The notes under the pieces: model-generated
Told to the model about the DNA's origin: nothing
What the model saw: only the letters and a program-made list of their open reading frames with translations
The model's database searches: none
Assembly: GCA_963663225.1 (NCBI GenBank)
Contig: OY760142.1
Coordinates: 2,528,001 to 2,592,000 of the forward strand
DNA: 64,000 bases
DNA from: Nitrospirota bacterium
GTDB taxonomy: Bacteria > Nitrospirota > UBA9217
Direction: 5' to 3'
Part shown: positions 41,921 through 54,944 of the stretch, in pieces
Position numbering within the stretch: position 1 is the first letter of the stretch
Layout: each line of letters starts with the position of its first letter
Position numbers and translations under genes: made by a program

Positions 41921-42147
41921 GAACGCTACGATGAGCAACAGCTAAAATAAAAAGACAACAAGAAAATCAAACAAGAGACCTAAACCGGTATTTTCTGGAA
42001 CACGGTCCTTTCTTGCCGAATGCAGATGACCGATACGCGATTACATCGCGTATCATTGCGTTGATCCTCCGGATGATGTCGTCAAACCAGAAAAAAGCGA
42101 CACCATTGTGCGTACACGGTTTTTTGTTTCAAGAAAGGTTAATAATA

Positions 42148-42336
42148 ATGTGTGACTTAAATGCATTTGTGATAAAGTGCGGCCGTGAAGAACTTCTTTT
42201 TGAATCAGTGAATAGTGTTGTTGTGAAAGACGGCGTAGTGGCAATGCGGAACCTTTTTGGAGAAGAGATAAAGGTTTGCGGGGAAATACGTGAGGTTTCA
42301 CTTTTAAAAAATCGGATTATTATCGGACAGAATTAA
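42148..42336 (+). CDS. CooT family small nickel-binding protein
   Basis: 62 aa, MC..NAF.....EEL..E.V.......NLFGE......I..VSL..N.III; AAGG RBS before ATG 42148. Confidence 0.72.
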   Translation: MCDLNAFVIKCGREELLFESVNSVVVKDGVVAMRNLFGEEIKVCGEIREVSLLKNRIIIGQN

Positions 42337-43412
42337 TCGGGCGCTGAGCAATTTTTTTCCAGTTTGAGAATGAAATGCGCTTGGTTCTTTTTTTCTGCAT
42401 TGATTTCGCCACCGTGAAACATAGTTTCATCTTGGTTTCTGCACTTGATTATCTGCTTAATTTGAACCGTGCGGAGAGCGAACTCTTTTTTTAATGTTGC
42501 GATATTGGAACGATGCTGTCCGATTGCTGCGGATACGTGATGAGATTCCACCCAAAATACTGCTGTATCGCTGTTTTCTCTCGTTTCCTGCAAGGCCGAT
42601 CGCATCTTATCTAAAAAAATTGAAGACTCAACAAGCTGTCTGAACGCGGGATGATACGGACCTGCGACGATCGTGCCGGGTTCCTCCAACTCCTCGGTAG
42701 GTTGTATTCCCACCCGAGATACGTTGATTTCTGCCCGTTGAAATCTAATCAAAGCTGTTTTACACATGCGAACTGCATCCACAAGGGAGGCGGGTCGGTA
42801 TTTCCCGTCATTATAAAGTTGTTCGAGAATGGTGTCTTTTATCACAAGAAGAGGGTACAGACGAACAAAATCGGGTTTTAGCGCGATGATCAAATCTATT
42901 GTCTTTAAAAAACGCTCAGGAGAATCGCCCGGCAGGCCAAGCATCACCTGAAGGCCAATGCTCATGTTAAGCTCTTTTAGAATTTTTACAGAATCTATTG
43001 TGTCAACGGCAGTGTGACCACGTCCTGCAAGGAGAAGAACGCTGTCATCCATGGATTGCACACCCAGCTCAATTGTGCAAACATGGTGCTGCTGCAGAAA
43101 CCTGACCCCAGATCGGGTTATACAATCCGGCCTGGTAGACAGTGAAATTCCCTGCACCGCACCGGCATGGATAAATGGCTGGACAGCCTTCAAATATGCA
43201 TCTTGATCTTCACAAGGCAGAGCCGTAAAACTTCCTCCATAAAATGCGACATATACAGGGCCGTTCTTTTTTCGTGTGCTGAGATATTTTTTTATTGTAT
43301 CGGGTATGGATGTTTGGCCGCTTGACTTTGCCTGGCCAATGATTCTATTCTGGTTGCAGAAAATGCATTGATGGCGGCAGCCTGAGTGAGGTATGAAAAA
43401 AGGGATGATCAT
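42333..43412 (-). CDS. Radical SAM protein (Elp3/YhcC-like, rnc-associated)
   Basis: GCRHQCIFCNQ, AFYGGSFT, STRPD, IELGVQS, GPYHPAF. Confidence 0.88.
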   Translation of the reverse strand: MIIPFFIPHSGCRHQCIFCNQNRIIGQAKSSGQTSIPDTIKKYLSTRKKNGPVYVAFYGGSFTALPCEDQDAYLKAVQPFIHAGAVQGISLSTRPDCITRSGVRFLQQHHVCTIELGVQSMDDSVLLLAGRGHTAVDTIDSVKILKELNMSIGLQVMLGLPGDSPERFLKTIDLIIALKPDFVRLYPLLVIKDTILEQLYNDGKYRPASLVDAVRMCKTALIRFQRAEINVSRVGIQPTEELEEPGTIVAGPYHPAFRQLVESSIFLDKMRSALQETRENSDTAVFWVESHHVSAAIGQHRSNIATLKKEFALRTVQIKQIIKCRNQDETMFHGGEINAEKKNQAHFILKLEKNCSAPD

Positions 43413-43437
43413 GTAGCCGAAAAGAATGCTTCATGCT

Positions 43438-44166
43438 TTAAGAGTTTTTGTTGCCTGTTTCTGCTGATTTATCAGAACGGACAGCGCCGGAAAAACTGAT
43501 AAAGGCTTCTTTGGCCGCGCACTGTTCAGCTTCTTTTTTGCTTTTTCCCGATCCCCGGCCAAAAAAAACATTTTGAATAAAAATTTCCACTTCAAAACGT
43601 TTCCGGTGCTCCGGACCTATTTCAGAAACGATACGGTATTCGGGCAGTTGCTTCAACCGTATTTGGCAGAGTTCCTGGAGTGCCGTTTTATAGTCAAGAA
43701 TGGTTGAAGTGACGGATATTTTTTTTATTATATCACTGAAGGCCCGGAGAAAGAACGGTTTGCAAGCTTCCATGCCTGCGTCAAGATAGACGGCTGCGGT
43801 AAGGGCTTCAAGGCTGTTTGCGAGGAGTGAACCTTTTTCCCGGCCACCGGTCAGCTCTTCTCCTCTGCCGAGCAGAAGAAAGTCTCCGAGATTAAGTTTC
43901 CGTGCGACTGCTGCAAGTGACTGTTCGTTTACAACAGCTGCTCGAAATTTAGAAAGATCGCCTTCCTGTGCAGCGGGGCAGAGTATCATGAGGTATTCGC
44001 TCACGATGAGATTGAGAACGGCATCACCAAGAAACTCCATCCGTTCGTTGTGGGTGGAAGCTTTATTTTCGTTAGCGTAGGATTTATGCGTGAGAGCTCG
44101 CTTGAGAAGATCAATATCTTTGAAAAAATACGATATCTCTTGCTGGATACCCTCGCAACCGCGCAT
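43438..44166 (-). CDS. rnc: Ribonuclease III
   Basis: ALTHKS, NERMEFLGDAVL, DYKTALQE dsRBD, GKSKKEAEQ; ATG 44166 abuts the fabF stop. Confidence 0.95.
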   Translation of the reverse strand: MRGCEGIQQEISYFFKDIDLLKRALTHKSYANENKASTHNERMEFLGDAVLNLIVSEYLMILCPAAQEGDLSKFRAAVVNEQSLAAVARKLNLGDFLLLGRGEELTGGREKGSLLANSLEALTAAVYLDAGMEACKPFFLRAFSDIIKKISVTSTILDYKTALQELCQIRLKQLPEYRIVSEIGPEHRKRFEVEIFIQNVFFGRGSGKSKKEAEQCAAKEAFISFSGAVRSDKSAETGNKNS

Positions 44167-44167
44167 T

Positions 44168-45406
44168 TTAAGGCCTGAATTTCTTGAACACCACGCAGGC
44201 ATTCGTGCCGCCGAATCCGAAGGAGTTGGACATGGCGACATGTACTTGCGCTTCCCGTGCTTTTCCGGGAATATAATCAAGGTCGCACTCGGGATCCGGG
44301 TTTTCAAGGTTAATGGTCGGCGGAAGTATTCCACGATTGAGGGCCAAGACGGAAATTACTGCCTCCACACCTCCGGCTGCGCCGAGCAAATGACCTGTCA
44401 TGGATTTTGTGGAACTTACCGCTATTTTATAGGCATGATCGCCAAATACCGTTTTTATAGCGGCCGTTTCATTTTCGTCGTTAAATTTTGTGGAAGTACC
44501 ATGGGCATTAATGTATTCCATTTCACCGGGCGTAACACGGGCGTCATGAATTGCCATTTTCATGCATCGGGCAGCGCCTTCCCCGTTCGGGGCGGGTGAT
44601 GTCATATGATATGCATCTCCGGTCATACCATAGCCAACAATTTCTGCCAAAATGACGGCGCCGCGTTTCCGGGCATGTTCCAAATCTTCAAGGATCATAA
44701 CTCCCGACCCTTCACCCATGACAAAACCATCGCGTTCAGCGTCGAAGGGGCGGCTGGCTCGTTGTGGTTCGTTGTTTCTGGTTGAGAGGGCCTTCATGGC
44801 GTTGAAACCGCCGACTCCGAGAGGGCAGATGCAGGATTCCGTGCCACCGGCCATCATGGCAAGAGCATCACCGCGTTGGATGATTTTAAACGCATCTCCG
44901 ATGGAGTGAGTCCCTGTTGCGCATGCGGTGACCACACAAGAGTTTGGTCCTTTCATGCCATAGCGGATGGAAATCTGGCCGGACGCCAGATTAACAATCA
45001 GCATGGGAATGAAAAAAGGGGATATTTTGCGATGGCCGCTCGCAAGATATATTTTGTGGTATTTTTCTATGGCGGGCAGTCCACCCATTCCGGAACTCAC
45101 CAGGACGCCTATATGTTCGGCATTTTCTTGCGTGACGGTAAGACCGGATTGATCCATAGCCATTTGACTCGCCGCAATTGCAAGATGTATAAAACGGTCC
45201 ATTTTTTTGATTTCTTTTGCATCAATGTACGCGTTTGGATCGAAGCCGTGTATTTCTCCTGCAATCTGTGTCGGGATGGTTTTGTCGTCGAATTGAGTAA
45301 TCGGGCCGATTCCCGATTTGCCTGAAATCAGACCTTCCCAAGACTTTTCGGTGTCCAAGCCAACAGGGGTTACCATCCCAACGCCGGTGACCACAACTCT
45401 TCTCAT
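44168..45406 (-). CDS. fabF: 3-oxoacyl-ACP synthase II
   Basis: [40 protein letters not shown]. Confidence 0.97.
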
Positions 45407-45499
45407 CAAATGAATGTACCTCCTGCCTCATCCTATGTAAAGCCAGAAGCATTATCACTTCACAGCGGTATTGAAGGATTCTTCTGGGTTTTGATTTTC

Positions 45500-45540
45500 A
45501 AAAAGAGATGCGGCATATAACTGCAACCGCATCTCTTTTT
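45500..45540 (-). terminator. Hairpin/terminator after acpP
   Basis: 14-bp stem AAAAAGAGATGCGG / CCGCATCTCTTTTT. Confidence 0.75.
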
Positions 45541-45552
45541 CAGAAAGGAAAC

Positions 45553-45855
<303 letters not shown>

Positions 45856-45859
45856 TTAA

Positions 45860-46600
45860 TTACATATACATTCCGCCGTTAACATGAATTACCTGGCCTG
45901 TAATGTAGGAAGCCAACGGTGACGCAAGGAAGCGAACAGCATTTGCGACATCCTCTGGTGTGCCGAGCTTGCCCATGGGAATTTGCTTTGCCAGCTCTTC
46001 TTTTACGGTGTCGGAAAGCGATTGGGTCATGGCTGTATCAATAAATCCGGGTGCAACAGCGTTTGCCGTGATTCCACGATTGGCGTATTCCCTTGCAATG
46101 GTTTTGGTAAGACCGATAAGACCTGCCTTAGAGGCCACATAATTAGCCTGTCCTGCATTGCCCATAGCCCCCACAATTGAAGCGATATTGATAATGGTGC
46201 CGCTTCGTTGTTTCGTCATATGTTTCAGGGCTGCTTTGGAGCACAGAAAAGCACCTTTCAAGTTGATGCTGAGTACAAGATCCCAATCTTCATCTTTCAT
46301 GCGCAGAATCAGCCCGTCTCTGGTAATTCCTGCGTTATTGATGAGCAGATCAATCTTGCCGAACTCCTTAATGACTTGATCGATCATGGCTGCAACTTCA
46401 TCTGCAGCAGCTACATTTGCCTTGAGCGCAAGGGATTTTCTGCCTGTAGTTTGAATATCCCCAGCGGTTTTTTGTGCCATTTCCAGATTCACGTCACAGA
46501 CTGCCACATCAGCTCCATCGGCAGCCAGTGCAAGTGCAATTTGTTTTCCGATGCCCTGCGCTGCGCCGGTCACGAGAGCAGCTTTACCGGTGAGATTCAT
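45860..46600 (-). CDS. fabG: 3-oxoacyl-ACP reductase
   Basis: TGAAQGIG, NNAGITRD, GNAGQANYVASK, VNGGMYM. Confidence 0.97.
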   Translation of the reverse strand: MNLTGKAALVTGAAQGIGKQIALALAADGADVAVCDVNLEMAQKTAGDIQTTGRKSLALKANVAAADEVAAMIDQVIKEFGKIDLLINNAGITRDGLILRMKDEDWDLVLSINLKGAFLCSKAALKHMTKQRSGTIINIASIVGAMGNAGQANYVASKAGLIGLTKTIAREYANRGITANAVAPGFIDTAMTQSLSDTVKEELAKQIPMGKLGTPEDVANAVRFLASPLASYITGQVIHVNGGMYM

Positions 46601-46695
46601 TGTTTCTCCTTAAAGTGATACTTTCCTGCCGTGTTAAAAGAAGCACCCGAGAGAGCAGAGGGGTAAAATGGATACTCCCGATCTGCCTTCCGCGT

Positions 46696-47628
46696 TTAAA
46701 CACCGATAACGTTGAGCGTATCGCTCATGCTTTTTTGGTCTTCAACGTTCAGTACTTTTGCCGTTTTGGCAATACGTTTCACGAGCCCGGAAAGGACCTT
46801 GCCCGGTCCGATTTCAACAAAAGTATCATACCCATCCGCAACCATAGCGGTGATCGAGTCTTCCCAGTAAAGAGGGAAACTGATCTGTTTGACAAGAGAA
46901 TGTTTGAGTTCTGCAGCTGTACGGAGAAATAGTGCATCCGCGTTGTTTACAATAGGGATACGGAGGTCGTTGATCTTAACTCTTTCAAGCTCCTGTGCCA
47001 AACGTTCGCCCGCCTGCTTCATTAATGCGCAGTGCGAAGGAACACTTACGGCAAGAGGCATTACTTTTTTTGCCCCTCCTGCCTTGGCAAGCTCCATAGC
47101 TTTTTCCACGGCTTTTTTTTCGCCGGCGATAACAATCTGGCCTGGAGAGTTGTAATTTGCAGGGGCAACTATACCATTTTTGGCCGCTTCAAGGCAAGTT
47201 TTTTCTAGATCCTGCCGTTCCATGCCCAGAATGGCGGCCATTAATCCAGTGCCTGCCGGGACGGCCTCCTGCATAAAACGGCCGCGTTTTTGCACCAGTG
47301 AAATTGCATCGGCCAATTCAAATCCTTCAGCAGCAGTTATGGCGGTATATTCTCCCAAGCTGTGACCTGCTGCTGCAGTCGCTTGCAGTCCGCGCCGCTC
47401 GATCGGTCGTAACAGAGCAATGCTTGCCGCGAGCAATGCAGGCTGGGTATTTTCCGTGAGGTTTAATTTTTCAACCGGACCATGAAAACAAAGTTGTTCA
47501 AGATCATATCCGAGCACTGTACTTGCAATCTCAAAGACTTCTTTTGCTTCTTTGAAATTCTCGACGAACTCTTTTGCCATGCCGAGATACTGTGATCCCT
47601 GGCCGGGAAACATAATTGCAATTTTCAT
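46696..47628 (-). CDS. fabD: Malonyl-CoA:ACP transacylase
   Basis: FPGQGSQ, TQPA, GHSLGEY, VSVPSH, EIGPG. Confidence 0.97.
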   Translation of the reverse strand: MKIAIMFPGQGSQYLGMAKEFVENFKEAKEVFEIASTVLGYDLEQLCFHGPVEKLNLTENTQPALLAASIALLRPIERRGLQATAAAGHSLGEYTAITAAEGFELADAISLVQKRGRFMQEAVPAGTGLMAAILGMERQDLEKTCLEAAKNGIVAPANYNSPGQIVIAGEKKAVEKAMELAKAGGAKKVMPLAVSVPSHCALMKQAGERLAQELERVKINDLRIPIVNNADALFLRTAAELKHSLVKQISFPLYWEDSITAMVADGYDTFVEIGPGKVLSGLVKRIAKTAKVLNVEDQKSMSDTLNVIGV

Positions 47629-47694
47629 TGCTGACCCCTCTAAAAACCGATTACTGTGGTTGCAGAATATTTCAGATGCAAAAAAAAGAAGAAT

Positions 47695-48888
47695 TTATCC
47701 CCTCAGCTCCTTAAATTTCCTGATCATAATCGGCACGACTTCCATGACATCGCCTACAATACCATACGTTGCCACGTTAAAGATAGGGGCATGCGGGTCT
47801 TTGTTGATTGCGACGATTACATCGGATGATTGCATGCCGGCAAGGTGTTGAATGGCTCCGGATATACCGCATGCGATATACAGCTTGGGGCAAACGGTTT
47901 TACCGGTCTGGCCGACTTGGTGCGAGTAGGGTATCCATCCCTCATCTACCGCTGCTCGTGAAGCGCCCACAGCGCCGCCTATCGTTTTTGCCAGTTCTTC
48001 GAGAAGGGCAAAATTCTTCGGATCAGAAAGACCGCGGCCGCCTGATACGATAATATCGGCTTCACAGATATTCACCGTTTGTGTTATGTCTTCAATGGTT
48101 TTGGTAACCCTTGTCCGGAGGCATTGTTGTTCTTTGAAGGAAACAGGGATGATTTCTCCTTTACGCGACGAATCGGGGTCTGCTTTTTTCATTACTTTAT
48201 GCCGGACGGTTGCCACTTGCGGCCGATGATGCGGAGTGACGATGGTGGCCATGATATTTCCCCCGAACGCGGGCCGGGTCTGCAGCAGATTTCCATTTTC
48301 AGGATCAATATCGAGCGAAGTGCAGTCAGCCGTGAGTCCGGTATGCAGAGCACAGGCTACTTTGGGAATAAAGGAACGACCGATTGCGGTGGCTCCCGCG
48401 AGAATAATTTCAGGCTTGTGGAGCTTGGCCAATGTCGTGAGTATTGCGCTGTATGGATCATCGTTGAAATCTTGCAGTGCGGGATCGTCAGCGACGTATA
48501 CGGTATCAGCGCCATAAGCGATAAGATCTTTTGCCTTCTCGCCGATGTTATGGCCGATAAATACCGCGGTAAGCTTGGCGTTTCTTTTGTCAGCAAGTTT
48601 TCTGCCTTCGCCCAGAAGTTCGAGCGTCACGCTGGAGATAGAGGATTTATGCTGCTCGGCAAATACCCAAACCCCCTTGTAAGCAGAAATATCTGCTGCT
48701 ACAGCCGCCGGTTCTTCTTCAGTTCGTTCGATGGCTTTGAGCTCACAAGCGTCGACGCAGGCACCGCAAATTGTACAATTATCATTGATGAATGCTTTTC
48801 CGTCACGCATCTCGATTGCGCTGAACGGACAGCTGGATATGCAGACTTCGCAGCCCGTACATTTATCGAGAATGATTTTTATACCCAC
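47695..48888 (-). CDS. etfA: Electron transfer flavoprotein alpha with N-terminal 2x[4Fe-4S] ferredoxin domain (CarE-like)
   Basis: CTGCEVCISSCP and CTICGACVDACE; GLTADCT, RPAFGGN, GASRAAVD, QVGQTG, GISGAIQH. Confidence 0.94.
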   Translation of the reverse strand: MGIKIILDKCTGCEVCISSCPFSAIEMRDGKAFINDNCTICGACVDACELKAIERTEEEPAAVAADISAYKGVWVFAEQHKSSISSVTLELLGEGRKLADKRNAKLTAVFIGHNIGEKAKDLIAYGADTVYVADDPALQDFNDDPYSAILTTLAKLHKPEIILAGATAIGRSFIPKVACALHTGLTADCTSLDIDPENGNLLQTRPAFGGNIMATIVTPHHRPQVATVRHKVMKKADPDSSRKGEIIPVSFKEQQCLRTRVTKTIEDITQTVNICEADIIVSGGRGLSDPKNFALLEELAKTIGGAVGASRAAVDEGWIPYSHQVGQTGKTVCPKLYIACGISGAIQHLAGMQSSDVIVAINKDPHAPIFNVATYGIVGDVMEVVPIMIRKFKELRG

Positions 48889-48948
48889 TGTTGACTCCTT
48901 TTACATGCAGAACCGTGGCAGCATATTACGGCGCTGTCATCCTTAATA

Positions 48949-49734
48949 TTATATCAGCGATTGTTCTTTTAATTTAGTTGCGACCTGTTCGACCTGCTGT
49001 TCAATGGTGCCGCTCAGAACCTCCCGTTGGCCACGAGGGGTAGGAGGGAAGATTTTTACGACTTTCGTCGGAGAACCTTTAAGTCCGCACAGATTTTCAT
49101 CAGCACTAATATCCTTAGCCGTCCAGACGGTAACCTTGAAATTTTTTGCTTTCATTTTACCTTTTAGCGACGGCAGGCGGGGTTCGTTGATTTCTTTGAC
49201 GACGCTGATTACGGCCGGGAGCGATGTCTCCACGACATCGTAGCCTTCATCCATCATGCGCTCGGCCAGCATTTTGCCGTTTTCGATCGACTCAATCTTC
49301 TTGATGAAGGCGACAAAGGGAACGCCGAGGACATCAGCAGTTTCAGGCCCCACCTGTGCGGTATCTCCGTCGATGGCTTGTTTGCCGGATATGACCAGGT
49401 CAAAGGCACCGATTTTTTTAATGCCTTTCGACAGCGTATACGAGGTCGCCCAGGTGTCTGAACCAGCAAAGGCCCTGTCTGAAAGGAGCACTGCGTCATC
49501 AACGCCGAGAGAAACGGCTTCTTTCAGCGCTTCGGCAGCCTGGGGCGGCCCCATGGAAAGGACAATTACTTTTCCGCCATGTTTTTCGCGCAGTCGAAGA
49601 GCCTCTTCAATGGCATACATATCATAGGGGTTGATGATGCTCGGCACACCGTCCCGAATAAGAGTATTCGTTTCGCGATTGATTTTTACTTCTGACGTAT
49701 CGGGGACTTGTTTGATTAATACGATTATATTCAT
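48949..49734 (-). CDS. etfB: Electron transfer flavoprotein beta (group-2/bifurcating-type motifs)
   Basis: KQVPDT, INPYD, DRAFAGSDTWATS, GKQAIDGDTAQVGP, GLKGSPT. Confidence 0.94.
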   Translation of the reverse strand: MNIIVLIKQVPDTSEVKINRETNTLIRDGVPSIINPYDMYAIEEALRLREKHGGKVIVLSMGPPQAAEALKEAVSLGVDDAVLLSDRAFAGSDTWATSYTLSKGIKKIGAFDLVISGKQAIDGDTAQVGPETADVLGVPFVAFIKKIESIENGKMLAERMMDEGYDVVETSLPAVISVVKEINEPRLPSLKGKMKAKNFKVTVWTAKDISADENLCGLKGSPTKVVKIFPPTPRGQREVLSGTIEQQVEQVATKLKEQSLI

Positions 49735-49833
49735 TTACTTTCTCCGAACTTCAAAAAACATCTTTATATCTCAGCAGCAACCAGGATATCTGTTATTCAT
49801 AAAAAGTCATCGGATCAGCTGTTACTGCCGGAA

Positions 49834-50991
49834 TTATTTTTGCTTCATAGCCGCCTTGATCATATCCAATGCAATGACATTTCTTTGGATCTGATTGGTG
49901 CCTTCATAAATTTGAAGGATTTTTGCATCCCGCATCATTTTTTCGACCGGATATTCTTTCATATACCCCGAACCGCCCATGACCTGTACAGCATCGGTGG
50001 TCACCCGCATGGCAGTGTCCGTTGCGAAAAGTTTTGCCATTGCTGATGCGCGAGAGATATCTTTTGCGCCGCTGTCTATGAAGCGTGCCACGGAATATAT
50101 AAGTGCACGAGCAGCTTCAGTCTGTGTTTGCATATCTGCAAGCATATGCTGGACGGCCTGGAAAGAAGCAACCGGTTGTCCGAACTGTACCCGTTGTTTC
50201 GCAAACTTGAGGGCTTCATTGATGGCGCCTTGTGCCACACCCACTCCCTGGGCGCCCACACCGGTCCTGGAACTGTCAAGCGTTTTCATGGTAACGATGA
50301 AACCCATTCCTTCCTTTGCGATCAGGTTTTCCTTCGGGATGCGGCAGTTGTTGAAAATCAGCTCAGTGGTGGATGAAGCGCGGATGCCCATCTTGTTTTC
50401 TTTTTTTCCAAAAGAAAATCCCGGTGTGCCTTTTTCCACGATGAACGCCGCCGCGCCGCGGTGCCCTTTTGACCGATCGGTAATGGCAATAACCGAGTAG
50501 ATTTCTGCTTCCCCGCCGTTTGTGATCCATTGCTTTGTGCCGTTCAGGACATATTCATTGCCATCAAGTTTTGCGGTTGTCTGTATGCCGCCGGCATCGC
50601 TTCCTGCATTGGCTTCAGTCAGTCCGAATCCAACGAGCCGTTTCCCTGCCGCGATGTCAGGAAGATACTTCTTTTTCTGGGCATCAGAACCGAACAGAAG
50701 AATAGGGTAGGTGCCCAGTGCATTGGCGGCATAACTTGTCGCAACCCCAACGCATGCTTTTGACAATTCTTCAACTGCGATGCAGAGCTCGAGGGTGTTT
50801 TTTCCGAGACCGCCATATTCCTCCGGAATAAACAAACCAAAAAGATCCGACTGCGCAAGTGCTTTCATGATGTCCCAAGGGAACTTGTTTTGCTCATCCA
50901 ATTCCGCGCGAACAGGCACAATTTTTTCTTCAGCGATCTGGCGTGCAAGGTCGCGAATCATTATCTGTTCTTCTGTCAGCAAGTAGTCCAT
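49834..50991 (-). CDS. Acyl-CoA dehydrogenase family protein (Bcd/CarC-like)
   Basis: PEEYGG, GLTEANAGSD, NGTKQWITNG, KMGIRAS, R.QFG, IYEGTNQIQR (catalytic Glu); GGAGG RBS before ATG 50991. Confidence 0.93.
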   Translation of the reverse strand: MDYLLTEEQIMIRDLARQIAEEKIVPVRAELDEQNKFPWDIMKALAQSDLFGLFIPEEYGGLGKNTLELCIAVEELSKACVGVATSYAANALGTYPILLFGSDAQKKKYLPDIAAGKRLVGFGLTEANAGSDAGGIQTTAKLDGNEYVLNGTKQWITNGGEAEIYSVIAITDRSKGHRGAAAFIVEKGTPGFSFGKKENKMGIRASSTTELIFNNCRIPKENLIAKEGMGFIVTMKTLDSSRTGVGAQGVGVAQGAINEALKFAKQRVQFGQPVASFQAVQHMLADMQTQTEAARALIYSVARFIDSGAKDISRASAMAKLFATDTAMRVTTDAVQVMGGSGYMKEYPVEKMMRDAKILQIYEGTNQIQRNVIALDMIKAAMKQK

Positions 50992-51056
50992 GTGGCGTCC
51001 TCCAGTAAGTTTCAAATTAAGAAAAAAGGCGGGAAATTAGTGTTGGTATGGCGATA

Positions 51057-52037
51057 TCACCATCGTATCAAGGCCGATCCCCACGTAAGCCCTCCACCAA
51101 ACGCTTCAAGCAAGACAAGATGATTGTCTTTTATTCTGCCGTCTCTGACCGCTTCATCAAGCGCCATGGGAATTGAAGCAGCAGACGTATTGCCGTATTT
51201 CGGGAGGGTGAGTACTACTTTTTCCATAGGCATCTTAAGTCGTTGGGCCATTGCCTGGATAATCCTCAGATTTGCCTGATGGGGGACAAGGAAATCAATA
51301 TCCTCATGTTTTAATTTATTATGCTCCAATGTTTCTTGCGCGACTTCTCCGAGTGCCCGGACCGCGGCCTTGAAGGTCTCATTTCCCTTCATTTTAATGA
51401 AGTGCAAACGCTTGTCTACGGTATCGTGAGATGCCGGATGAAGGGTCCCGCCGCCGGGGATGGAAAGCAAATGACCGAGAGCACCGTCCGAATGTAAATG
51501 GGTAGAGAGTACGCCATGCTTTCCAGCGAATCGCTGCAACACAACAGCACCCGCGCCGTCTCCAAAAAGCACGCAGGTAGTCCGGTCTTCCCAATCGGTG
51601 ATCCGGGACAGTATCTCAGAGCCGACCAAAAGAATATTTTTGCATGCTTCTGATTTGATATGTGCGCTTGCTATCGATAGGCCGTAAATGAAACCTGAAC
51701 AGGCGGCATAAATATCAAAGGCGGCAGCTTTTTTCGCACCGAGTTTATGCTGAAGCAGACATCCGCAGCTCGGCATGGCCATGTCCGGCGAGGTTGTCGC
51801 AATGATGATCATGTCCAGTTCCTGCGGAGATAATTTCGCCATTTTGAGTGCTTTCAGGGAGGCCTCGTAGGCGAGATCAGATGTGTTTTCGCTTTTATCC
51901 GCGATATGGCGCTGCTTGATGCCGGTGCGTTCAGTTATCCAGTCATCTGAAGTATCCAGCATCTTTTCCAGGTCATAGTTGGTGACGACCTTCCTGGGTG
52001 CATAGGATCCAATTCCGGTTATGCGTGCTTTTATCAT
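51057..52037 (-). CDS. fabH: 3-oxoacyl-ACP synthase III
   Basis: AACSGF, FGDGAGA, PHQAN, GNTSAAS, FGGGLTWG. Confidence 0.97.
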   Translation of the reverse strand: MIKARITGIGSYAPRKVVTNYDLEKMLDTSDDWITERTGIKQRHIADKSENTSDLAYEASLKALKMAKLSPQELDMIIIATTSPDMAMPSCGCLLQHKLGAKKAAAFDIYAACSGFIYGLSIASAHIKSEACKNILLVGSEILSRITDWEDRTTCVLFGDGAGAVVLQRFAGKHGVLSTHLHSDGALGHLLSIPGGGTLHPASHDTVDKRLHFIKMKGNETFKAAVRALGEVAQETLEHNKLKHEDIDFLVPHQANLRIIQAMAQRLKMPMEKVVLTLPKYGNTSAASIPMALDEAVRDGRIKDNHLVLLEAFGGGLTWGSALIRW

Positions 52038-53047
52038 TTTGGTTTCACCAAGCTCATGTTTTTTTCAATGTCTGCCTTGATATGCTTGTTTATTTCGCTG
52101 TTGGCAAAGTCGGTAGCGACACGGATGGCGTTCTTAATGGCCCGGTCTGAAGAACGTCCGTGGCTGATGATGCTGATGCCGTTGATGCCCAGAAGCGGCG
52201 CTCCGCCGTATTCTGCGTAATCGAGGCGGCGTTTGAGGATGTTGAAAGCCGGTTTCATCATCAAATAGCCGAGTTTCCGGACCAGGTTGTTTCCGATATT
52301 TTCCCTGATGATTGATGTGATGGTTTCCGCCACCGCTTCTGATACCTTGAGAACAACATTGCCGATGAAACCGTCGCAGACGACCACGTCCGCTTTGCCG
52401 GTCAAGACATCACGCCCTTCTACGTTCCCGATGAAGTTGAGAGATGTCTCTGTCAGAAGTTTGAAAGCTTCTTTTGTCAGTTCGTTGCCTTTGGTTTCTT
52501 CTTCGCCGATCGAAAGGATCCCGACCCGGGGGTTCAGATTCTTTAATGAGTATTTGGCAAAAACTTCCCCCATGACGGCAAATTGAAGCAGATGGTTCGG
52601 TTTGCAGTCAACGTTAGCACCCACGTCCAGCACGATGGATGTGCCCTTGATGGTCGGCATGTAGGTGGCGATTGCCGGCCGCTCAACTCCTTCCAGGGGA
52701 CCAAGCACAAAGAGTGAGGTGGCCATCGCCGCACCGGTATGTCCCGCGCTGATGACTGCCACCGCCTCTCCACTTTTAACAAGCTGATTTGCCACGCGGA
52801 TGGAAGAGTCTTTTTTCCTGCGAAAAACCGTTGACGGAGAATCAAGCATGTCCACAACTTCCGTGGCATTCCGTATCTCAATGGGCAGCGATTGCGCATC
52901 AGGATATTTTTTGAGCTCTGCACAGATTAGTTGTTCAATGCCCACCAGAATGATGCCGACGCCGAATGCTCGCGCTGCCTGCACTGCACCTGCGACGATG
53001 GCGTGAGGTGCATTATCTCCTCCCATGGCATCAACAGCGATTTTCAT
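52034..53047 (-). CDS. plsX: Phosphate acyltransferase PlsX
   Basis: AVDAMGGD, DVGAN, GNVEGRD, CDGFIGN, HGRS. Confidence 0.97.
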   Translation of the reverse strand: MKIAVDAMGGDNAPHAIVAGAVQAARAFGVGIILVGIEQLICAELKKYPDAQSLPIEIRNATEVVDMLDSPSTVFRRKKDSSIRVANQLVKSGEAVAVISAGHTGAAMATSLFVLGPLEGVERPAIATYMPTIKGTSIVLDVGANVDCKPNHLLQFAVMGEVFAKYSLKNLNPRVGILSIGEEETKGNELTKEAFKLLTETSLNFIGNVEGRDVLTGKADVVVCDGFIGNVVLKVSEAVAETITSIIRENIGNNLVRKLGYLMMKPAFNILKRRLDYAEYGGAPLLGINGISIISHGRSSDRAIKNAIRVATDFANSEINKHIKADIEKNMSLVKPK

Positions 53048-53062
53048 ACAGGCCCTTTCAAT

Positions 53063-53110
53063 ATAAAAGGCAAAGAACCATACTGCGGAAAAGGATGGTC
53101 ACTTTGCCTT
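53063..53110 (-). terminator. Hairpin after rpmF (partial terminator or processing site)
   Basis: AAGGCAAAG/CTTTGCCTT outer stem, ACCAT/ATGGT inner stem, then T-rich on the minus strand. Confidence 0.55.
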
Positions 53111-53127
53111 GTGAATGTGCAGACTAT

Positions 53128-53310
53128 TTATATCTGTTGAATTGTAATGACTTCTCGACCGTTGTACGTGCCGCATGAAACACATGCGTGGTGAGGCTTC
53201 TTCACTTCTTGGCATTGTGGGCAGATTGAAAGACCCGGCGCCTTGAGATATTTATGGGTCCGCCGTTTATCTCTGCGGGATTTGGATGTTCTGTGTTTTG
53301 GATTGGCCAT
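53128..53310 (-). CDS. rpmF: 50S ribosomal protein L32 (zinc-ribbon type)
   Basis: [28 protein letters not shown]. Confidence 0.97.
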
Positions 53311-53329
53311 GAGTAGTACGATGCTCCTT

Positions 53330-53845
53330 CTATTTTTTTAGTAAATCTTTTAAAACGGAAAACGCGCCAGACGTTTCCGGTGAATCATTGCTGCATTTGC
53401 AGCCTTTTTCATTACGGTCCGCCCCGCACCGGCTACAGAGTCCTTTGCACTCCGGATGATGAAGCGGTACCATCGGCAGGGCGATAAGCAATTGCTCCCG
53501 CAGGAATTCAACAGGCTCTATTTCATTGCCCTCATAAAATTCCATGTCAAGCTCTCCCTTTCCGAGCTCATGTTCATGAACGGTTCCGAGAGAGTTTGCT
53601 GGTGCAATCTCAAAGTTTACATCGGCATCGATAGAGTATGTAAAACTTTTTAAACAACGGCTGCATTGAAGCAACGGTGCCGCCGTTACATGTCCGGTCA
53701 CCCTGAAAATTCCGGTCCCACCGGACTTAAACACGAGAACCGCTGTAACGGCTACAGATGCTGTTCCCGTGTCAAAAAGATCAATTTTTTGATCAAAGCT
53801 CAGTGTAAGCCCTTCGGGCGGTATATCGCTGATTTTGATGGCCAT
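53330..53845 (-). CDS. YceD/DUF177 family protein
   Basis: [24 protein letters not shown]; canonical position before rpmF. Confidence 0.92.
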
Positions 53846-53877
53846 TTCATTCAGCCCCTAAGGCTACAGAGTTTTGA

Positions 53878-53906
53878 ATTATATAGAGGAGCACCGATTT
53901 TGTCAA
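53878..53906 (-). promoter_or_regulatory. Perfect-consensus sigma70 promoter heading the yceD-rpmF-plsX-fab operon
   Basis: Minus strand TTGACA-17 nt-TATAAT. Confidence 0.85.
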
Positions 53907-54314
53907 GATAAATATACTTTTTTACCGCAAACCACAAAAAACGTTGCTCACGATGTATTGAAGAAAAATGAAGTGAACCTTATCGATATTTTTGTTTCAC
54001 AGCAGTTTAGGACCGGCATTTTTGCTTGGAAACTCACGGATTATGATCGTTAAGATTGTAACTTGTTTGATTATGACTATAAGAAAATATAGTGGGAAAT
54101 GGTCAGTCGTACAATGCTTAAACTAAACGCATTTGATGATATTTAAACATGACTCAATCTTAAATATGTATTGTATTTCATATGTTTACGGTAAAATATA
54201 CGAAAAAAATTAAATACTACGGTGTGAGTATGAATAATATATTCATATTTTTATGTTGACTTCTAATATTTGATAAGTTATTTTTACGGAATCTAGATGA
54301 GGGAATTACTTGCT

Positions 54315-54944
54315 ATGAACCTAAAAGTATTGTTCGTTTTTGTTCTTCTTGTCGTTTTTAGTATTTCTTTGCCTCCAAATGGATTGGCGGCAATCTATAA
54401 ATATACTGATAAGGATGACTTGATCCATTTTGTTGATGATTTGCAGTCTGTTCCAGAGCAATATAGGTCTTCGGCAAAAATAGTCAATGGAGAGGATAAA
54501 GAAGAAATCAAGAAGCCGTCAAGCCAACCACCTGCTCAGACAGAGACAAAAAAGGCAGAAATATCGACCAGCAACATTGCAGAAAAAGTAGAAGCGGCTC
54601 CTTTTGGCAAGCGGGCAATAATCTCTGCCATTATTATCGTAAGCGCACTCTTTGCATTTGTAATTCTGAAGAGGCTCGACATGGACAACAAAAAAGTAAT
54701 TTCTATTACCAGAATCGTTATTCTTTGGGGAATATCGATTTTTTTGCTGTATGCCCATGCAGGGGACGTTGTCTCAGTCTTCAGCTCAATAGGAAATAAA
54801 ATAGAAAATACGCAACAGAAAGCTGAAGAAAAAGGGAAAAAGGCTGCCAAAGCAATTAAAGCAATGGACGTTTTAATAGAACGAGCAGAAAACCACTCAG
54901 CTAATGACATGCAATCGACGGAATCGGAGAATAGCAAACAATAA
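54315..54944 (+). CDS. DUF4124-like exported/membrane protein
   Basis: Signal peptide, IYKYTDKDDLIHFVD..SVPEQY, two further TM helices and a coiled-coil tail; start 54315 after GAGGG (54297 possible). Confidence 0.7.
   Translation: MNLKVLFVFVLLVVFSISLPPNGLAAIYKYTDKDDLIHFVDDLQSVPEQYRSSAKIVNGEDKEEIKKPSSQPPAQTETKKAEISTSNIAEKVEAAPFGKRAIISAIIIVSALFAFVILKRLDMDNKKVISITRIVILWGISIFLLYAHAGDVVSVFSSIGNKIENTQQKAEEKGKKAAKAIKAMDVLIERAENHSANDMQSTESENSKQ

Follow-up and report, generated by a model that had tools for sequence, protein, structure and literature searches.

An acyl-CoA dehydrogenase-ETF module in the fatty-acid synthesis operon of a Nitrospirota bacterium is a candidate electron-bifurcating enoyl-ACP reductase

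Results and Discussion

The window analysed here, a stretch of 64,000 nucleotides from the genome of an anaerobic Nitrospirota bacterium, carries on its minus strand the gene order yceD-rpmF-plsX-fabH-[ACAD-etfB-etfA]-fabD-fabG-acpP-fabF-rnc, assigned with Pfam and NCBIfam models, in which genes for an acyl-coenzyme A (acyl-CoA) dehydrogenase (ACAD) and the two subunits of an electron-transfer flavoprotein (ETF) are set among those for fatty-acid synthesis. Judging from the sequences, we consider it probable, at roughly 0.6, that this ACAD-EtfBA complex reduces the enoyl thioesters of type II fatty-acid synthesis (FAS-II) here, a step in which it would replace FabI, FabK, FabL or FabV. This role is suggested because the module is the only ACAD/ETF set of the genome, has no CoA pathway to serve and occupies the place of a reductase among the fab genes, because the ACAD is conserved more strongly than its neighbours, and because the module is present where FabI, FabK and a FabL-like enzyme are absent. 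That the module replaces FabI/FabK had been proposed in an earlier note on the window, and the genome-wide absence of the known enzymes, a conserved insertion and a complementary distribution support the proposal.

More tentatively, and at somewhat short of even odds, the complex could represent a fifth, structurally unrelated class of enoyl-acyl carrier protein (enoyl-ACP) reductase that bifurcates electrons and yields one reduced ferredoxin per elongation cycle, and could be a housekeeping enzyme of Thermodesulfovibrionia and of anaerobes among the Omnitrophota, Planctomycetota, Thermodesulfobacteriota, Rokubacteria, Margulisbacteria and other groups. To our knowledge, four families of enoyl-ACP reductase are known. 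FabI, FabL and FabV belong to the short-chain dehydrogenase/reductase (SDR) superfamily and FabK is a flavin mononucleotide (FMN)-binding TIM-barrel protein, whereas the module has an unrelated fold without homology to any of them and comprises three subunits with, going by sequence type, three flavin adenine dinucleotide (FAD) cofactors and two Fe-S clusters. What it shares with these enzymes is the position between fabH and fabD, occupied by a FabL-like protein in one Nitrospirota family (f16), and a distribution complementary to that of FabI and FabK across 301 genomes.

Sequence and predicted type of the three proteins

The module consists of the following features.

49834..50991, minus strand: ACAD, acyl-CoA dehydrogenase family, Bcd-like, 385 amino acids, proposed catalytic subunit (three Pfam ACAD domains)
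48949..49734, minus strand: etfB, small ETF subunit, bifurcating type by sequence (Pfam ETF; CarD the best PDB match)
47695..48888, minus strand: etfA, large ETF subunit with Fer4, ETF and ETF_alpha domains (Pfam; CarE match over the full length)
48694-48888 (nucleotides), minus strand: N-terminal two-[4Fe-4S] ferredoxin domain of etfA, residues ~1-65 (Fer4 matches)

The ACAD has the N, M and C domains of the family in Pfam, and its best PDB match is the butyryl-CoA dehydrogenase (Bcd) of Clostridium difficile (5ol2_C, 424 bits), with which it is about 57% identical as judged by eye on the printed alignment; the Acidaminococcus fermentans Bcd scored 396 bits. Glu363, in the motif YEGTNQ and corresponding to the catalytic base of the ACAD family, is invariant in 44 fab-linked orthologs, as is Glu198. 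In C. difficile Bcd, Glu198 makes a salt bridge with EtfA, according to PMC5691135. Weaker matches included the acyl-ACP dehydrogenase MbtN (87 bits), the prolyl-peptidyl carrier protein (prolyl-PCP) dehydrogenases PigA/RedW (245-262 bits) and PDB entry 4irn (213 bits), and since these act on prolyl-PCP and acyl-ACP, the ACAD fold can evidently work on carrier-protein thioesters. MbtN, PigA/RedW and 4irn thus share with the proposed enzyme both the fold and a tethered substrate, but they oxidise, they belong to secondary metabolism, they are not ETF-bifurcating, and their similarity to the ACAD is far below that of Bcd.

Residues 1-392 of EtfA align with residues 1-391 of CarE (6fah_A, 441 bits), ferredoxin domain included. 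This domain, which the earlier note did not mention, gave Fer4 matches at residues 3-60 and is kept in 41 of 43 complete EtfA orthologs, whose first 62 residues include 8 or 9 Cys. The nearest structure to EtfB is CarD (6fah_B, 266 bits). For both subunits the five best PDB matches are the ETFs of CarDE, A. fermentans, C. difficile, Thermotoga maritima and LctBC, all of which we take to be electron-bifurcating; these scored 441-289 bits against EtfA and 266-208 bits against EtfB, compared with at most 170 and 97 bits, respectively, for the ETFs of human (non-bifurcating), Paracoccus and Methylophilus. The ranking, which is one of whole sequences, strongly favours the bifurcating group.

By sequence, then, the complex is of the Bcd/EtfAB-CarCDE type (ACAD-EtfB-EtfA). 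With the Bcd-EtfAB complexes of C. difficile (5ol2) and A. fermentans (4l1f/4kpu) it shares the three-protein set, the catalytic Glu and Glu198, and an ETF that ranks with the same two-FAD type. It differs in having the extra ferredoxin domain on EtfA, in lying inside a fab operon where Bcd-EtfAB genes go with crt, hbd and thl, in belonging to a genome with no known route to crotonyl-CoA, and in its proposed substrate, enoyl-ACP of all chain lengths. Caffeyl-CoA reductase-ETF of Acetobacterium woodii (CarCDE, 6fah) resembles it in the two-[4Fe-4S] domain of EtfA and in EtfB, but the module ACAD is nearer to Bcd than to CarC (317 bits), and its locus has a fatty-acid synthesis context and no caffeate-activation genes.

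We infer that the module works in the reductive direction and, by analogy with these complexes, that it bifurcates electrons. Reduction of an enoyl thioester by NADH has a large driving force (the value is that for crotonyl-CoA), and it is this, together with the kind of ETF and an Fe-S domain resembling that of CarE, that points to bifurcation. On the model of Bcd-EtfAB and CarCDE, NADH would reduce the bifurcating FAD on EtfB; one electron would pass by way of the FAD in domain II of EtfA to the FAD of the ACAD, where trans-2-enoyl-ACP would be reduced to acyl-ACP, and the other would reach ferredoxin or flavodoxin via the pair of [4Fe-4S] clusters in the N-terminal domain of EtfA. Overall, the reaction would be 2 NADH + Fd(ox) + enoyl-ACP -> 2 NAD+ + Fd(red) + acyl-ACP (Fd, ferredoxin), returning one reduced ferredoxin per elongation cycle.

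The complex might instead be an enoyl-ACP reductase that does not bifurcate, passing electrons from NADH or from reduced ferredoxin to enoyl-ACP and making no reduced ferredoxin. The acryloyl-CoA reductase-ETF complex has been reported as non-bifurcating, and the best NCBIfam models for ACAD, EtfB and EtfA are those of the acryloyl-CoA reductase set AcrC/AcrB/AcrA, although each scored under its cut-off (equivalogs NF042972/NF042971/NF042970: 474 bits vs a cut-off of 640, 235 vs 475, and 373 vs 600). The direction of electron flow through the ferredoxin domain is also not fixed by the sequences. However, EtfA and EtfB rank highest against ETFs of the bifurcating kind, and the CarE-type ferredoxin domain has been retained in nearly all orthologs, so that we regard the non-bifurcating enzyme as unlikely.

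Enoyl reductases and CoA pathways in the rest of the genome

The genome is a single contig of 3,255,001 bases with 49.4% G+C and an estimated completeness of 99%, and judging by its closest relatives it belongs to the Nitrospirota class Thermodesulfovibrionia. The Pfam model Acyl-CoA_dh_1 matched one gene genome-wide, the operon ACAD, and the ETF model matched two, the operon etfB and etfA. The fatty-acid pathway is otherwise complete, with FabZ encoded twice and fabH, fabD, fabG, fabF and acpP present.

The earlier note had found no fabI, fabK, fabV or fabL in the window, and model searches extend this to the whole genome, with the proviso that the FabV search lacked a positive control. The best genome match to FabK scored 102 bits against a cut-off of 453. 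Six SDRs of the adh_short_C2 type are encoded; all six read Y-x3-K at the active site in their translations, their best scores were to FabG or ketoreductase types, and the FabI model was absent among the 25 best listed matches of each. E. coli FabI reached at most 55 bits in the genome by tblastn. Among these listed matches FabL appeared for one SDR only, scoring 145 bits where the cut-off is 328. FabV had no match in the genome with two models that also matched no positive control, which leaves its absence weakly supported.

Searches for a CoA-linked pathway were similarly empty, so that the lack of thiolase, crotonase, 3-hydroxybutyryl-CoA dehydrogenase and CoA-transferase noticed earlier in the window holds for the genome by Pfam models and tblastn. 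Across the whole genome, the crotonase model ECH_1 had no matches, 3HCDH_N, for 3-hydroxyacyl-CoA dehydrogenase, gave only a 27.8-bit fragment in a frame of 514 residues, and Thiolase_N matched only FabH and one ketoacyl synthase. When E. coli PaaF, PaaH, PaaJ, AtoB and AtoDA were searched against the genome with tblastn, nothing was found at E <= 1e-3 except a 38.5-bit AtoB fragment. With the searches for crt, thl, hbd and CoA-transferase empty, no beta-oxidation or butyrate pathway can be recognised that might supply or draw on an ACAD specific for CoA esters.

These results bear on an alternative raised in the earlier note, that the module is an ordinary crotonyl-CoA/butyryl-CoA enzyme supplying short acyl-CoA primers to FabH. 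Its identity to C. difficile Bcd and its position directly behind fabH would suit such a role. However, the enzymes that could make crotonyl-CoA (crotonase, thiolase, 3-hydroxyacyl-CoA dehydrogenase and CoA-transferase) are missing from the genome, none of them was found beside the module in 80 related loci, and fatty-acid synthesis would still be left without a reductase. Primer supply is thus disfavoured, and we consider it very improbable.

Conservation and distribution within the Nitrospirota

An ACAD ortholog of at least 72% identity was present in 28 of 41 genomes, a sample made up of the window's genome, 24 further members of its family and 16 genomes from ten other Nitrospirota families. 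The earlier note had called for a survey of gene neighbourhoods, and the insertion behind fabH proved conserved: fabH adjoins ACAD in 26 of the 30 loci returned from these genomes, the four exceptions lying in other families and consisting of two orthologs (f4 and f11) and two paralogs of 45-46% identity. Inside the window's family, ACAD identity is 85-91%, compared with 72-79% for FabH and 69-80% for EtfA. In families f4 and f11 the ACAD gene has been relocated to a housekeeping neighbourhood, with etfB-etfA-fabD still adjacent. The complete genome G036 illustrates this, with the order pdxJ-acpS-etfB-etfA-fabD (L149:7367-11531) and the ACAD gene 380 kb away, so the ETF genes have stayed with ACP-related genes although the dehydrogenase gene has moved.

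A census covered 301 Nitrospirota genomes, each at least 80% complete, with thresholds of E <= 1e-150 for ACAD, E <= 1e-55 for FabI, E <= 1e-60 for FabK and E <= 1e-20 for FabV. ACAD orthologs were found in 157 of the 301 genomes, namely 156 of 162 sampled genomes of 18 families and the window's genome, and in 0 of 138 genomes of other families. FabI showed the opposite pattern (94 of 301 overall), with 0 of 162 in the ACAD families and 94 of 138 in the others. FabK-type matches were found in five genomes; four were above the cut-off, in the ACAD-less families f2 and f7, and the fifth, of 258 bits, was in genome G009. FabV was detected in 0 of 301 genomes at a threshold at which no control genome matched either. 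The anticorrelation with FabI and FabK that the earlier note had proposed as a check is therefore present in this phylum, and most of the families that lack ACAD are filled by FabI or FabK.

Family f16 (27 genomes) had no match to ACAD, FabI, FabK or FabV. Its members encode an SDR of about 270 residues, present in 7 of 7 genomes examined, and in 4 of 4 loci checked (L157-L160, from genomes G165, G137, G117 and G152) the order was plsX-fabH-[SDR]-fabD-fabG. The best family for this protein is FabL, at 158 bits; its best structure is Bacillus subtilis FabL, and its active site reads Y-x6-K. As 158 bits falls under the cut-off of 328, standard annotation would miss it as an enoyl-ACP reductase. 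A comparison of these loci with the ACAD families indicates that, within one phylum, the position between fabH and fabD is taken by a FabL-like reductase in some members and by ACAD-etfBA in others, which bears out the earlier note's view of this slot as a reductase site. The SDR of the window's genome that matched FabL (C1:419550-420383) was considered as a FabL and rejected: its best PDB matches are ketoreductases, it has Y-x3-K, and it shares only 26% identity with the enzyme in the f16 slot.

No reductase was assigned in about 14 genomes from groups that are small or incomplete: f28, six genomes of five further families, two of f8 and four of f9. The single f20 genome had only a 93-bit SDR.

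Association with fatty-acid genes in other phyla

When a single genome of each species was scanned, 592 relatives were found, and the loci of the best 80 of these (67-91% identity) were compared. The module proved to be joined to fatty-acid genes beyond the Nitrospirota: among these best 80 of 592, at least one fab gene was present in the flank of 42, etfBA only in 13, and ACAD stood alone in 25, most of the latter being Thermodesulfovibrionales of the f4/f11 type. Also among the best 80 of 592, fab-linked orthologs of 67-73% identity were found in metagenome-assembled genomes (MAGs) labelled as at least eight other phyla, the labels being Thermodesulfobacteriota/Deltaproteobacteria, Omnitrophota, Planctomycetia, Actinomycetota, Rokubacteria, Margulisbacteria, Saganbacteria and Pseudomonadota, with some unlabelled. 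At least four orders occur in the fab-linked loci: fabH-ACAD-etfBA-fabD, plsX-ACAD-etfBA-fabG, fabG-acpP-fabF-ACAD-etfBA, and a whole fab string followed by ACAD-etfBA. Linkage that persists through rearrangement is a usual sign of a shared pathway, and suggests one for the module and the fab genes.

Twenty-two fab-linked genomes were searched for the known reductases; in these MAGs, which may be incomplete, there was no FabI match of 200 bits or more and no FabK above the cut-off. One of the fab-linked MAGs, G048 (2.8 Mb, locus L117), has ten FabK/NMO-like matches of 63-358 bits, which may act in trans as enoyl reductases for clusters that make polyketides or polyunsaturated fatty acids.

The FabX-like protein and other candidate reductases

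The 102-bit match to the FabK model is a 367-residue protein of the FMN/NMO family (C1:1593497-1594618, minus strand; L019:7498-8601). It matches Helicobacter pylori FabX (7e1q) at 205 bits over residues 6-365, compared with 65-69 bits for FabK structures, and it has four Cys in a C-terminal insert. The gene is monocistronic and adjoins ribF, away from the fab genes. FabX is described in PMC8626469 as a decanoyl-ACP dehydrogenase/isomerase of unsaturated fatty-acid synthesis. Within the window's family 23 of 24 genomes have a homolog, as do families f3, f4 and f11 and most of the Thermodesulfovibrionia searched; homologs stand alongside FabI in f5 (2 of 2) and alongside FabK in G025 of f2. Because of this co-occurrence with FabI and FabK, the FabX-like gene appears to have a role of its own rather than to be the missing reductase, and its presence suggests from sequence that Nitrospirota possess a FabX pathway for making unsaturated fatty acids.

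One could nonetheless imagine this FMN/[4Fe-4S] protein running in reverse as the enoyl-ACP reductase, with ACAD-ETF only exchanging electrons with it. FabX is related to FabK, and the homolog is nearly constant in the window's family. Its coexistence with recognised reductases in f5 and f2, its monocistronic gene beside ribF rather than with fab genes, and its absence from 13 of 22 fab-linked genomes of other phyla (E <= 1e-15) all argue against this arrangement, to which we give little credence.

It is also conceivable that an unrecognised enoyl-ACP reductase is encoded elsewhere and that the module has another task in lipid metabolism, such as oxidising acyl-ACP to enoyl-ACP for anaerobic unsaturated fatty-acid synthesis, or modifying lipids. 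ACADs normally oxidise, new types of reductase are still emerging, with the FabL-like enzyme of f16 as an example that escapes standard cut-offs, and the genome contains a second lipid cluster with an amine-oxidase/CrtI-like flavoprotein. Several findings stand against this explanation: the role of dehydrogenase/isomerase is already covered by the FabX homolog, the module's type of ETF works with reductive partners, and 0 of the 6 SDRs resemble the f16 enzyme, the nearest by FabL score being the rejected candidate with 26% identity and Y-x3-K. It would, moreover, need an extra reductase in exactly the families that carry ACAD. Overall we judge it a little less likely still than the non-bifurcating enzyme discussed above.

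Substrate carrier and evidence to the contrary

We infer that the substrate of ACAD-EtfBA is enoyl-ACP and not a CoA ester, because ACP is the carrier used by FabH, FabG, FabZ and FabF and there is no sign of a route by transacylation. Complex prediction of two ACAD copies with AcpP, with alignments as input, gave a score of 0.00, and was counted neither way.

A number of observations weigh against the assignment of the module as the FAS-II reductase. The ACAD sequence has no feature that we found to mark use of ACP over CoA, and the protein is about 57% identical to a true crotonyl-CoA enzyme. Two Arg residues, R17 and R28, are present in 62 of 65 and 61 of 65 fab-linked ACADs, compared with 1 of 8 and 0 of 8 of their relatives in Bacillota, and the mean net charge is -0.1 in the fab-linked proteins (n=65) vs -5.9 in the Bacillota ones (n=8). 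The R17 position falls in a helix that contacts EtfB in the C. difficile Bcd structure, as given in PMC5691135, and the two residues and the charge were therefore rejected as a signature of ACP docking.

The distribution has its own difficulties. The 258-bit FabK-like gene of G009 lies beside ACAD in a genome of the window's own family. (An apparent break in the G009 ACAD gene, considered as a natural replacement by the FabK-like gene, was discarded, the 'break' being a run of 10 N at a scaffold gap.) As the 18 ACAD-positive families probably form a single clade, the pattern in Nitrospirota may rest on few, non-independent events. Outside the phylum, four of the 22 fab-linked genomes encode FabK-like proteins that score 260-358 bits and four more encode ones that score 164-196 bits, and there is one FabI-like match of 157 bits. 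Finally, eight ACAD-etfBA units of a Bacillota clade, 69-73% identical and without fab neighbours, are nested among the fab-linked ones (FastTree, support 95), and FabI at 273-299 bits is present in 5 of the 8 genomes of this clade. As these units are not fab-linked and occur with FabI, close similarity alone does not fix the role. One of the Bacillota loci has unrelated neighbours, an MFS transporter and folate enzymes.

Organization of the operon

The remaining features of the operon are as follows, from the promoter downstream.

53878..53906, minus strand: sigma-70-type promoter, TTGACA-17-TATAAT, 5' of yceD (12 of 12 consensus positions; a consensus match only)
53330..53845, minus strand: yceD (Pfam YceD, 92 bits)
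53128..53310, minus strand: rpmF, ribosomal protein L32 (Ribosomal_L32p, 88 bits)
52034..53047, minus strand: plsX, phosphate acyltransferase (TIGR00182, 395 bits, above cut-off)
51057..52037, minus strand: fabH, beta-ketoacyl-ACP synthase III (TIGR00747, 446 bits, above cut-off)
46696..47628, minus strand: fabD, malonyl-CoA:ACP transacylase (TIGR00128, 347 bits, above cut-off)
45860..46600, minus strand: fabG, 3-oxoacyl-ACP reductase (TIGR01830, 339 bits, above cut-off)
45553..45789, minus strand: acpP, acyl carrier protein, DSLD motif with Ser37 (NF002149, 139 bits; alignment)
44168..45409, minus strand: fabF, beta-ketoacyl-ACP synthase II (TIGR03150, 671 bits, above cut-off)
within 43438..44334, minus strand: rnc, RNase III (Ribonucleas_3_3, 137 bits; dsrm, 66 bits)

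Every gene named in the earlier note was confirmed in its place by Pfam and NCBIfam, and its description of a perfect promoter agrees with the match at all 12 consensus positions. The open reading frame listed for rnc overlaps the end of fabF, and the real start is probably further downstream. For the ACAD, the start is the ATG at 50991, with GGAGG 8 nucleotides upstream; a TTG start at 51015, chosen by the program that listed open reading frames, was rejected as it has no counterpart in orthologs. The gaps flanking ACAD, etfB and etfA are 65, 99, 60 and 66 nucleotides by coordinates, within the 60-99 bp first reported. A pattern scan of the minus strand from 42000 to 54600 found three terminator-like sites, at 53753, 53675 and 49339, all within coding sequence, and none in the intergenic gaps of the operon, in line with the earlier impression that no terminator separates the three genes. 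This arrangement would allow the string of genes from the promoter to rnc to be co-transcribed.

Directly downstream of rnc is a gene for a radical SAM protein (window 42333-43412, minus strand), whose best likeness is the tRNA-modification protein MnmL/YtqA (104 bits, under the cut-off of 180). The second lipid-type cluster of the genome lies at C1:1393000-1399700 (L155:5053-11662, minus strand) and encodes a methyltransferase, a FabG-like SDR, a ketoacyl synthase, a FabZ-like dehydratase, a second ketoacyl synthase and the amine-oxidase/CrtI-like flavoprotein.

Implications

The complex is by its sequence of a known kind, while the pathway role and substrate proposed for it would be new. The earlier note knew of no characterised enoyl-ACP reductase of the ACAD/ETF type, and a full-text search of the literature, with subscription-only papers and supplementary files outside its scope, likewise found no description of one. 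Genomes that lack all four reductase families have long left pathway reconstructions incomplete in many anaerobes and uncultured phyla. ACAD-etfB-etfA offers a directly testable system in this respect, with orthologs in cultured Thermodesulfovibrio relatives.

If the assignment is true, the fatty-acid pathway would be closed in at least 18 Nitrospirota families and in MAGs of many other phyla, and the partnership of ACAD and ETF would be extended to acyl carrier protein substrates. Cells with this enzyme would have a reductase insensitive to inhibitors directed at FabI. It would also be the first case of flavin-based electron bifurcation in a core anabolic pathway, in which low-potential electrons would be recovered from the very exergonic reduction of the enoyl group.

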